Below are positions 1 through 38,109 of a stretch of 51,174 bases of DNA, one piece after another (the first letter of the stretch is position 1; each line of letters opens with the position of its first letter). The position numbers and the translations under genes are program-made. The DNA is from Rozella allomycis CSF55. Its lineage: Eukaryota. The notes below the pieces were generated by a model. The model ran no database searches, had not been told where the DNA came from, and was given only the letters and a program-made list of their open reading frames with translations. The stretch spans positions 1 through 51,174 of the forward strand of contig KE560866.1 of assembly GCA_000442015.1 (NCBI GenBank). Reading direction: 5' to 3'.

Positions 1-192
1 TGCCACACGCACAGCCACGATAATCATCGCGTTCAAGCCCCTGTCGAAAGAAGATAAAGTCGAAATTCTATGTGATAATTAAATAACGCGCTATTTTTTA
101 AAAGAAATGATTATAGTCATAAAAGAAATTGCGATGGACATATTTTCATCAAAGGTTCGTCCGTACTTATATGTTAATTAATAATGCTATAT

Positions 193-2375: not shown

Positions 2376-3194
2376 TTAACTTTCAAATATAATTCCCAAT
2401 TCCTTCAAAATATTCCCAATGGATTTGAATTTTTGTTTCAATTCCTCGTTTTGCAATCGTAGATTTAAATTTTCTCTCTTTAATACTTCGTTCATTTGTT
2501 TACAAATCAAAAATTCTTCATTTTGTTCTTTGCTGCTCATATTGTCTTTGCTGTTCATACTACTAGTTACCGTCTTCGTATTTGTTAAAAGAGGACTTTC
2601 AATCTCTATTTCCAAAATGGTTCCTTCATTGTCGGACTCTACCTCTCCATTCCTCTCATTCTGAATGATGTCATGCACGATAAAATTGACATTTGAAGCA
2701 TGATAATTGACAGTCCACTTTTCATCTTTTAAAGTAGCTTTTGATTCTTGAATAGCCGCGGACTTCAAAATAGATTCAAAAATCCTTAACAGGTTACTGA
2801 AGCTACGTTGGCTGAATCTTACGTGTATGATGTCAAAAATATTTGATCTTGGGAGTGCAAAAAAGAATTTTATCTGAAGAACAATGGAGAATGACTCTTT
2901 AATGGTTAAATAGGGTGGATAAAGAGCAACTATGGAATCAGATATCCTTATTTGCTCTTTTCCGAAATGCTGTACGTTATACACGGGATTGATTAGATTG
3001 CATAATTTTGAATCAAAATCTAATGAAAAACATCTCAAGGTATCGATGGAATTATTATCAACAATGTGGTTGGGCAGTAGTCTTAAGGATCCTGTTGCGG
3101 CGCCACTTCTTAATAGACAAATAGAATTGTACTTGTTAACTCTTAGGGAATGAAGCCATTTAAAAAAGTCACGAGAAGTCTCTGGCAAGTTCAT
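2376..3194 (-). CDS. Hypothetical protein with C-terminal coiled coil (272 aa)
   Basis: Uninterrupted ATG-to-stop ORF; leucine-zipper-like C-terminus; no family recognised. Confidence 0.6.
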   Translation of the reverse strand: MNLPETSRDFFKWLHSLRVNKYNSICLLRSGAATGSLRLLPNHIVDNNSIDTLRCFSLDFDSKLCNLINPVYNVQHFGKEQIRISDSIVALYPPYLTIKESFSIVLQIKFFFALPRSNIFDIIHVRFSQRSFSNLLRIFESILKSAAIQESKATLKDEKWTVNYHASNVNFIVHDIIQNERNGEVESDNEGTILEIEIESPLLTNTKTVTSSMNSKDNMSSKEQNEEFLICKQMNEVLKRENLNLRLQNEELKQKFKSIGNILKELGIIFES

Positions 3195-4080
3195 TTAAAG
3201 CTTATCAAAAAGTTTATTCGCAAGACAAAACTTTGACCAATAATGGTAAGGTGAAATTTTCATATTTAATGATATCAATAATGAATAGCAGTACATCTTC
3301 ACGTCGAAGTTGACATATTTTTGACGCAATAGTTTCTGTGGCCAGAACATTTTCAGAAGATGATTTCACGTCGAATATTCGAGATATCTAATCNAACGGT
3401 CCACTTTTCATCTTTTAAAGTGGCTTTTGATTCTTGTATAGCCGCGGACTTCAAAATAGATTCTAAAATCCTTAACAGGTTACTGTAGCTCCGTTGGCTG
3501 AATCTTACGTGTATGATGTCAAAAATATTTGATCTTGGGAGTGCAAAAAAGAATTTTATCTGAAGAACAATGGAGAATGACTCTTTAATGGTTAAATAGG
3601 GTGGATAAAGAGCAACTATGGAATCAGATATCCTTATTTGCTCTTTTCCGAAATGCTGTACGTTATACACGGGATTGATTAGATTGCATAATTTTGAATC
3701 AAAATCTAATGAAAAACATCTCAAGGTATCGATGGAATTATTATCAACAATGTGGTTGGGCAGTAGTCTTAAGGATCCTGTTGCGGCGCCACTTCTTAAT
3801 AGACAAATAGAATTGTACTTGTTAACTCTTAGGGAATGAAGCCATTTAAAAAAGTCACGAGAAGTCTCTGGCAAGTTCATTTAAAGCTTATCAAAAAGTT
3901 TATTCGCAAGACAAAACTTTGACCAATAATGGTAAGGTGAAATTTTCATATTTAATGATATCAATAATAAATAGCAGTACATCTTCATGTCGAAGTTGAC
4001 AGATTTTTGACGCAATAGTTTCTGTGGCGAGAACATTTTCAGAAGATGATTTCACGTCGAATATTCGAGATATCTAATCT
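2708..4080. repeat. ~686 bp near-identical tandem duplicate around single N at 3394; creates the partial second copy ORF 3353-3880
   Basis: 2708-3393 repeats as 3395-4080; differences cluster near the ends. Confidence 0.85.
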
Positions 4081-36313: not shown

Positions 36314-36386
36314 GGCTAGTTGGCGCAACTGGTAGCGCAATCGACTCCAGATCGATAGGTTACAAGTTCGAGTCTTGTACTGGTCA
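36314..36386 (+). tRNA. tRNA-Trp (CCA)
   Basis: Acceptor stem GGCTAGT/ACTGGTC; anticodon arm ATCGA-CT-CCA-GA-TCGAT; GTTCGAGT; T-run follows. Confidence 0.95.
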
Positions 36387-36552: not shown

Positions 36553-37382
36553 ATGCCATCCACGGAGCTCCCAAAAGTGTCCATAATAGTTCCCACTTAC
36601 AAAGAATGTGCCAATTTGGAGCCTCTAACGCAGCGCATATCAGCGTCACTCGGCAGCATTCCATACGAGCTGATCATAGTAGACGACAACTCGCAGGACG
36701 GCACATCAGAGCTCGCTTCCAAACTGTCCAAAAAGTACCCTCTCCATCTTCTCGTGCGCACCAATGAGCGCGGACTGAGTGGCGCCGTATTGCACGGGTT
36801 CGCAGCAAGCAGGGGCCAGCTGATGATCTGCATGGATGCTGATCTGCAGCACCCTCCAGAAGTACTTGGCGCGATGGTTGAACGGCTTAAAGAGAGCGAG
36901 TTTGTGATTGGCACGCGGTATATGGATGGACTGATGAAAGTTGACGAGGTATGTGGTGTGTTTTTCGGTTGGATAGGTGAGAGTGTTTTTTTCGTGGGAG
37001 ATAGGGATGGCCGGTTTATAGAAGGGTGATATCGCAGGGCGCGAGATTGATGGCGCGGCCGCTGACTGGGATGAGTGATCCGATGACTGGGTATTTTGGG
37101 ATTAGGAGGGATGTGTATGAGAGGGGAGTTCGTAGGGTCAGTGCTATAGGGTTCAAGATTTGTTTGGAGATGTATGTAAAGTGTGGTGTGAAGAAGCATG
37201 CGGAAGTTCCCATTGACTTTGGAGTTAGAGTGCATGGAGAAAGCAAATTGAGTAGCAAAGTGATAGTGAATTATTTGAAGCATTTGATTGAATTGTATTT
37301 GTACAAAATGCCAATAGTAATTGCAATGATCGGGATAATGATATTATACGTGTTGTACATGATATTTAGCAGTATTCAATAA
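36553..37382 (+). CDS. DPM1: Dolichol-phosphate mannosyltransferase (GT2) with C-terminal TM
   Basis: SIIVPTYKE, IIVDDNSQDGT, GLSGAV, MDADLQHPPE, DPMTGYF, RVHGESKL; 56-nt intervening sequence at 36949-37004. Confidence 0.9.
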
Positions 37383-37494
37383 ACGAGTATTTAATTAACC
37401 CCTTTCCCGTAAAAATCTTTCGGCAATTTCCCAAATTTCTTACCGTCGGATTCTCCAAAGAGTTTTAAAACCCTAAAAATTCCCAAATAGAAAA

Positions 37495-37986
37495 ATGAAA
37501 TACCTGAGAGGTGGATTTAATGTCAGAGGGATAAATCGTGGATTGAGGATCATTAGAGTCAAAGAAAATGATGGCACTCCAAGAAAAAAAAGAACAAAAA
37601 AGGTAGTACAGGTATCGTCAAAAATGACAGACCGGATGACAGATAAAAATTCAGAAAACACTACAGAAGATCAGAACGCGATCGAGTTGAGACATGAACA
37701 TCTGTTTGATGGCGATGATGATATGATCCAACCTGATTCCAATGATTATTCACAGAGACTTGGAGAAGAGCGCAACAATTGGCAAAACGTACAAGAGCAA
37801 GCTATTAGAGAATTAGTGGATTCCAATACCTGCTCTGGTCACATCTGCGGTGTGACAAATTGCAATGAGAATTCCGAGGTTCATTGTACTACGTGCGTGG
37901 ATCATCCAAACTTTTGTCGCGCACACGACGAAAACATCATAAGCTGTATGGTAATAGATACCAAGCAGGAACCATGTGGAATATAA
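37495..37986 (+). CDS. Cys/His-cluster protein; possibly a truncated transposase-associated (CxC/B-box-like) fragment
   Basis: Basic and acidic N-terminus, then CGVTNC..HCTTC..FCRAHD; no catalytic domain follows. Confidence 0.4.
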   Translation: MKYLRGGFNVRGINRGLRIIRVKENDGTPRKKRTKKVVQVSSKMTDRMTDKNSENTTEDQNAIELRHEHLFDGDDDMIQPDSNDYSQRLGEERNNWQNVQEQAIRELVDSNTCSGHICGVTNCNENSEVHCTTCVDHPNFCRAHDENIISCMVIDTKQEPCGI

Positions 37987-38109
37987 ATTAATAAACCGTT
38001 GATAGATAATGGATATTTTAATAAAGGATTATTTAATAAACTTGTATTAAAATCTCAAATCCTTTAATAACTAGTTTCAACTATTTCAAATTCCAATTAA
38101 AAAACTAAT

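Follow-up and report, generated by a model that had tools for sequence, protein, structure and literature searches.

A 56-nt intron in a DPM1-type gene of Rozella allomycis as a weak two-unit member of a genome-wide class of end-to-end mini-introns, with candidate unit-by-unit splicing

Results

The DPM1-type gene and its intron

The window analysed here is a stretch of 51,174 nucleotides from the fungus-like parasite Rozella allomycis CSF55 (assembly GCA_000442015.1, contig KE560866.1, positions 1 to 51,174 of the forward strand), and at 36553-37382 it carries a gene that is interrupted by an intron of 56 nt. Because the predicted product has a PF00535 domain and its nearest named homologues are dolichol-phosphate mannosyltransferases, it is on these grounds a DPM1-type GT2 glycosyltransferase. 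The gene comprises the following features (a slash marks a splice boundary):

36553..36948, + strand: exon 1 of the DPM1-type glycosyltransferase gene, 132 codons, ending in GAG at phase 0, with the PF00535 match
36949..36976, + strand: intron unit 1, 28 nt, donor GTATGT, acceptor TAG, adenosines at +3, +25 and +27 only
36973, + strand: A at +25 of unit 1, its sole candidate branch adenosine, 1-2 nt past the usual +23/24
36974..36979, + strand: inner junction TAG/GTG, an acceptor followed directly by a donor with a zero-length exon; inner donors are rarely GTG
36977..37004, + strand: intron unit 2, 28 nt, donor GTGAGA, acceptor TAG
36999, + strand: candidate branch adenosine of unit 2; counted from the inner donor it stands at exactly +23
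37005..37382, + strand: exon 2, 125 codons plus TAA, starting with GGATGG; the C-terminal tail is hydrophobic

A preliminary description of this DNA had divided the intron into two adjoining units of 28 nt that each run from GT to GATAG, and both are present in the sequence as described. Excision of 36949-37004 gives a protein of 257 aa that is identical to the annotated Rozella allomycis GT2 protein P0003, whereas excision of either unit alone leaves a truncated frame of 146 aa and excision of neither leaves one of 158 aa; the earlier claim that only removal of the full 56 nt restores the protein is therefore correct. The boundary between exon 1 and unit 1 reads GAG/GT (36946-36950). G and T predominate at third codon positions in the 3′ half of the gene, where A is almost absent from these positions, and the units are poor in adenosine because this half forms a G/T-biased third-position patch.

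The gene as a whole is GC-rich beyond the norm for the genome, and its third positions turn from C-rich to G/T-rich near the middle; between haplotypes the gene diverges by about 4-5%. A tRNA-Trp gene lies at 36314-36386, 170 nt upstream of the start, and a 665-nt multi-copy insertion with 24 matches in the genome is located just past the stop, at 37400-38064. This insertion, which encodes a Cys/His-rich frame of 169 aa without a Pfam match, is missing from other haplotypes, with 23 letters in its place in all four DNA runs; it is likely a non-autonomous mobile element. Elsewhere in the window, two neighbouring frames at 2379-3880 (- strand) share at least their first 110 residues and represent either a tandem duplicate or an assembly repeat.

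Intron arrays across the genome

The DPM1 block, initially described as a single case, proved to be one of many unit arrays in the genome. For a test that is blind to units, 61 dynein heavy chains from outside Rozella were combined into a profile, which was aligned to 11 loci with one intron of any length allowed per junction. This gave 82 introns, 57 of which passed fixed support filters; the 25 dropped calls included 11 long ones, three of them splitting into units. Among the 57 confident introns, 36 were 26-31 nt in length and 21 were longer (56-59, 83-89 and 116 nt, plus one of 45 nt), and 20 of these 21 split at AG/GT into 2-4 units of 26-32 nt, compared with a mean of 0.31 and a maximum of 3 in 2000 shuffles. 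The 45-nt exception is in frame and free of stops, and is probably a coding insertion.

DEAD-box genes were treated as a second family, in which 31 of 32 loci were aligned and 33 of 63 introns were confident, comprising 31 single introns, one of 33+29 nt and one single intron of 136 nt. The size of 26-30 nt that had been given for the neighbouring introns is thus close to that of the single introns in both families (26-31 nt in 36/57 dynein and 31/33 DEAD-box introns). Ten long DEAD-box calls with low support were dropped, none of them splitting, so that over both families 18 of 21 dropped long calls lacked a unit split (8/11 and 10/10 for dynein and DEAD-box, respectively), and we read these as alignment errors; among the confident long calls, 21 of 23 were arrays. 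Because arrays account for 20 of 57 dynein introns and 1 of 33 DEAD-box introns, they are clustered by gene. Their frequency is also uneven among dynein paralogues, with most introns stacked in C255, C826 and C549 and none in C589, C265 and C774.

In a genome-wide search, a pattern of three in-phase junctions gave 154 matches, against 2 in a reversed and 0 in an off-period control. Because the 20 dynein arrays yield eight such matches, this number corresponds, as a rough estimate, to a few hundred arrays, and the class probably comprises a few hundred introns. The arrays consist of runs of 2 to 12 units and occur in genes for SNF2-type helicase, SMC, glycogen debranching, E1-like, chaperonin and dynein proteins. 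When 25 exon frames were scanned, Pfam models ran on across the array in all six informative exon pairs, with a match to the same family on both sides. Rozella introns thus include a genome-wide class of complete introns of 26-32 nt placed end to end, the architecture and frequency of which are read from the DNA, and the proposal of two abutting complete introns with a zero-length exon draws its good support mostly from this class rather than from the DPM1 locus alone.

Several other searches were of limited use. A first, loose pattern search gave 350 matches against 344 in the reversed control and only revealed the arrays; since a common coding word occurs in the reversed control, it has no power as a count. 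Gene prediction ab initio, with a flat prior for long introns, merged neighbouring genes and produced many false long introns, and was dropped. A strict local ORF scan made 30 calls, of which the 15 long ones were mostly mispredictions and were not counted, and the 15 short ones were used only for spotting the A at +23. In metagenomes, a search for arrays returned at least 121 loci, and nearly all of the 80 listed proved to be simple repeats or uniform minisatellites that lack long flanking frames, which is not evidence of absence.

Splice signals in the inner units

The inner junctions of the dynein arrays carry bases that the split itself does not require, namely TAG in 28 of 29 and GTA in all 29 cases, although the cores of adjoining units rise above the 95th percentile of random pairs in only 7 of 29 comparisons. 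Every donor of the dynein introns starts with GTA, the 56 first ones as well as the 29 inner ones, and so does that of each of the 31 DEAD-box singles (GTA was slightly favoured in the aligner's scoring). A pattern that left the middle junction free matched 77 times, against no match in the control; the 53 loci that were examined comprised 49 with TAG/GTA, two with AAG/GTA, one with TAG/GTG and one that spans N, and by eye the remaining listed matches showed no junction miss. The final acceptors of the dynein arrays are mostly AAG (12/20), and beside the TAG of the inner ones this makes the inner sites look stronger than the outer.

Single introns, whatever their length, have an A at +23 in 56 of 67 cases and at +23/24 in 64 of 67 (background 0.33-0.35). 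The same holds for the non-last units of the dynein arrays (21/29 and 28/29, respectively) and for the middle units of 46 other arrays (70/110 and 104/110), in which the signal at +23 persists with one unit taken per array (33/46) and with similar units removed (53/88). These counts rest on homology-defined introns, and the signal was not used in array selection. The U2 RNA contains the canonical GTAGTA pairing region, and the introns have no branch consensus, a CTRAY motif being present in only one of 67 single introns.

Because first and middle units would need no A at +23/24 in an array of which just the two outer ends counted, its retention argues that the inner units are used, and its presence in single introns and inner units alike points to a fixed ruler from donor to branch point on every unit. 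We infer that the conserved A at +23/24 is the branch point and that it is chosen by its distance from the donor. Recent duplication could explain part of the retained adenosines and junctions, but not in diverged units. In copies compared across N joints, differences affect none of the 90 junction positions and 41 of the 349 core positions, a comparison of little weight because the pairs were picked by intact junctions.

The arrays are also skewed in composition, with first units G-rich and last units C-rich (mean +0.50 versus -0.45, 59 arrays, p = 1e-9), for example in the 12-unit array L127 (G000:C719:35202-35541). Third codon positions around the dynein arrays are more G-skewed upstream than downstream (0.69 versus 0.37, p = 0.007), and the arrays are located at switches from G to C skew. 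Hairpin pairing across arrays showed no excess (mean z 0.18, 36 arrays).

The DPM1 intron compared with the class

Judged by its sequence features, the DPM1 intron is a weak member of this multi-unit class. Its units lie within 26-32 nt, are joined at AG/GT and separate in-frame exons, but the inner donor is not GTA. An A at +23/24, which the class has in about 95% of units, is found in unit 2 but not in unit 1, where it is at +25. The lack of an A at +22..24 in unit 1 is shared by 11 of 224 reference introns and units, and its lack of any A from -5 to -20 by 0 of 116. Another 28-nt unit without an A at +22..24 but with one at +25 occurs in an array on C648. The pattern with a GTG inner donor has three matches genome-wide, including DPM1, and none in the control; the other two are both in arrays and both have an A at +23/24.

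With a probability of roughly 0.7, we consider the 56 nt to be a two-unit member of the Rozella class that originated by duplication and is removed unit by unit under the guidance of the ruler. An alternative that we regard as possible, though unlikely, is a relic array, in which the block would have originated as two units but would now mostly be removed in one step of 56 nt through the GTATGT donor and the A in unit 2, the inner junction decaying from GTA to GTG and unit 1 having lost its A at +23. The two DPM1 units are indeed the weakest, scoring below all 116 reference introns and units in a simple matrix of unit-level signals, and the inner GTG is rare; GTATGT, moreover, is a strong donor in yeasts. 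The confident 136-nt intron without an inner junction, which is located at RGL/DV in the DEAD-box gene L086 (G000:C442), demonstrates that a long one-step mode exists and that the machinery is therefore not strictly limited to 32 nt. That intron, however, has a GTAAGT donor, a CTAAT branch motif and an 80-nt hairpin (-28.7 kcal/mol), without which about 56 nt are left, whereas the DPM1 intron lacks CTRAY in the region of its end, and its folding is weak (-5.3 kcal/mol). A decayed junction was found neither among the 20 dynein arrays nor among the 52 N-free junctions of the free-middle search, and in DPM1 an A is retained at +23 of unit 2 and at +25 of both units despite the almost A-free patch. 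Rfam gave no RNA family at the locus of the 136-nt intron, the position of which resembles that of the conserved DBP2/DDX5 regulatory intron, with which it may be identical.

An ordinary 56-nt intron with a central AGGT that arose by chance in a G/T-rich composition is improbable. Chance alone splits the intron at AGGT into halves of 25-31 nt in 6.3% of 200,000 interior shuffles, and the resemblance between the units, claimed in the preliminary description, stands in part only: they match at 15 of 28 ungapped positions with p = 0.021 in a shuffle of the cores, but this likeness is modest, and GATAG is a common acceptor here. Such an origin would nevertheless have to produce a split of exactly 28+28 nt in a genome in which arrays make up 21 of 23 confident long calls from two gene families. 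The combined signals (for the upper figure, the AGGT split together with an acceptor base other than G, a purine at +3 and, in unit 2, an A at +23/24) occur in 0.13-0.6% of the shuffles, by criteria chosen after the +23 ruler had been seen.

Two introns around a micro-exon, or a nested layout of the stwintron type, are still harder to reconcile with the data. In-frame options of the former kind exist on paper, for example 28 nt + 6-nt exon + 22 nt, but they need introns of 20-24 nt, which is below any confident intron, and would add residues that the homologues lack. The motif G[ST]R[YFWN]..W was matched in 89 of 108 homologous proteins, with 9 or 10 residues between the anchors in 84 of these 89, and because the spliced DPM1 protein has 10, there is no room for a micro-exon. 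As for nesting, no inner intron splits a donor or acceptor dinucleotide in the sequence; the units abut and show no donor- or acceptor-interrupting layout.

An assembly artefact that placed two alleles of one 28-nt intron in tandem has next to no probability. The assembly does set divergent copies side by side elsewhere, across N joints, but at DPM1 there is no N and the full-length block is spanned without gap or joint in four DNA runs from two studies, two of them letter for letter. Run contigs X1 (36757-37383) and X3 (36757-37130, from a different study) have 0 differences and 0 gaps across the block, and runs X5 and X6, compared by gaps and length, represent a haplotype with about 3-4% divergence and the same intron length, their gaps being accounted for outside the intron. 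The block is therefore genomic, and not one unit duplicated in assembly. The copies mentioned above are short gene segments that adjoin across single N joints (G000 C255, C504, C648 and C706) and are probably two haplotypes; such joints imitate long introns.

Discussion

Proposed mechanism and origin

In the mechanism that we propose, the U2 spliceosome would select the branch A by a distance of about 23 nt to the donor, and then the first suitable AG 3-8 nt beyond this A, with the default outcome that one unit of 26-32 nt would be excised per cycle. If unit 1 of DPM1 were removed first, the exon ending in GAG would be joined to GTGAGA, and a donor with an A at its +23 would be regenerated; if unit 2 were removed first, unit 1 would stay intact. 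Either order would give the same mRNA. Stepwise removal of the DPM1 units appears likely, with indirect support from the junctions and +23/24 adenosines that inner units keep across the genome.

As to origin, if a segment roughly as long as one intron were duplicated in tandem across AG/GT, a new complete unit would result in any register, and every new junction could seed further duplications. The exon before the intron ends in AG in 18 of 20 dynein arrays versus 10 of 36 singles (p = 1.3e-5), and exon 1 of DPM1 does so as well. Between dynein paralogues, the number of units differs at four of five shared aligned positions (e.g. one unit versus two or three), and in the near-identical gene copies C268 and C138 one unit is present once versus three times, the C138 copy beginning after N. 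The tandem duplication that had been suggested for DPM1 is clear in other arrays, with near-identical neighbour units, but only weakly visible at DPM1 itself (p = 0.02), the units of which would since have drifted in a strongly G/T-biased patch and kept little beyond the needed adenosines.

Comparison with known systems

For animals, a few hundred sites of recursive splicing are known, which lie in very long introns, and for fungi a handful of cases. Recursive splicing with a zero-nucleotide exon has been described in two cases in S. pombe, including the SPNCRNA.445 intron (10.1101/226894), and in BOT1 of Cryptococcus neoformans, where one 375-nt intron consists of 210+165 nt with a zero-length exon (10.1101/224170). 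In these accounts, as in Rozella, an annotated intron is two introns joined at AG/GT with no exon between them; the fungal cases, however, number one or two per genome, fall in introns of 336-375 nt and are demonstrated on RNA, whereas the Rozella arrays are known from DNA alone, are built from units of 26-32 nt in runs of 2-12, and include nearly all long introns examined. The ratchet points of Drosophila and mammals, as described, lie in very long introns and are recognised via a cryptic exon that is about 50 nt long and has a donor downstream (PMC8605326). They share with the arrays a tandem acceptor-donor pair and a conserved junction, and in the arrays, too, the first step would regenerate a donor, but the DPM1 intron is 56 nt long with only 28 nt after the junction, which leaves no room for a cryptic exon, and its units are the size of normal introns.

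Fungal stwintrons have been reported as two short U2 introns that are excised in consecutive reactions (PMC6616335), and these too are complex intervening sequences of two short introns. There, according to the report, one intron splits a splice signal of its partner and removal follows a fixed order, whereas the Rozella introns abut and either order works on paper. In the published model of tandem genomic duplication, a duplicated AGGT segment supplies a new acceptor and donor and leaves the coding sequence unchanged (PMC3443670). The AG-ending exons that precede 18 of 20 Rozella arrays agree with this model, but the model describes the copying of exon sequence to give an isolated intron, whereas in Rozella intron-boundary sequence would be copied repeatedly at existing intron sites. 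The tiny introns of Stentor (PMC9505925) and of myxozoans and dicyemids (PMC13644364) are described as having no branch consensus but a conserved A at a near-fixed position. An A defined by position and a canonical U2 pairing region (GTAGTA in Rozella U2) are common to these systems; the A of Rozella is placed about 23 nt downstream of the donor, and the Stentor and myxozoan accounts, in the text available (PMC9505925, PMC13644364), describe no intron arrays.

The mechanism would thus be of a known kind. No earlier account of recursive splicing that is systematic, works on minimal units and has its branch point set by distance was found in a search that subscription papers lay largely, and supplements wholly, outside, and a prior mention in a genome paper or its supplement is possible.

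Implications

Beyond the DPM1 locus, we lean slightly towards a broader view in which Rozella measures about 23 nt from the donor to the branch A, so that long introns would survive only as strings of mini-introns that are removed singly or, rarely, by means of a branch motif and a hairpin. Hundreds of introns would then lengthen in steps of whole introns, like minisatellites, recursive splicing would be routine, and DPM1 would illustrate how weak a used unit can be.

If true, recursive splicing would be the standard route for any Rozella intron above roughly 32 nt, and would work on units as small as possible, in a cultured organism. This would make accessible the questions of maximum and minimum intron length under intron definition, of branch choice by distance alone, and of tandem duplication as a routine source of introns. 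Because annotation pipelines enter the stacks as single introns, the intron counts and gain rates of this lineage would be understated.
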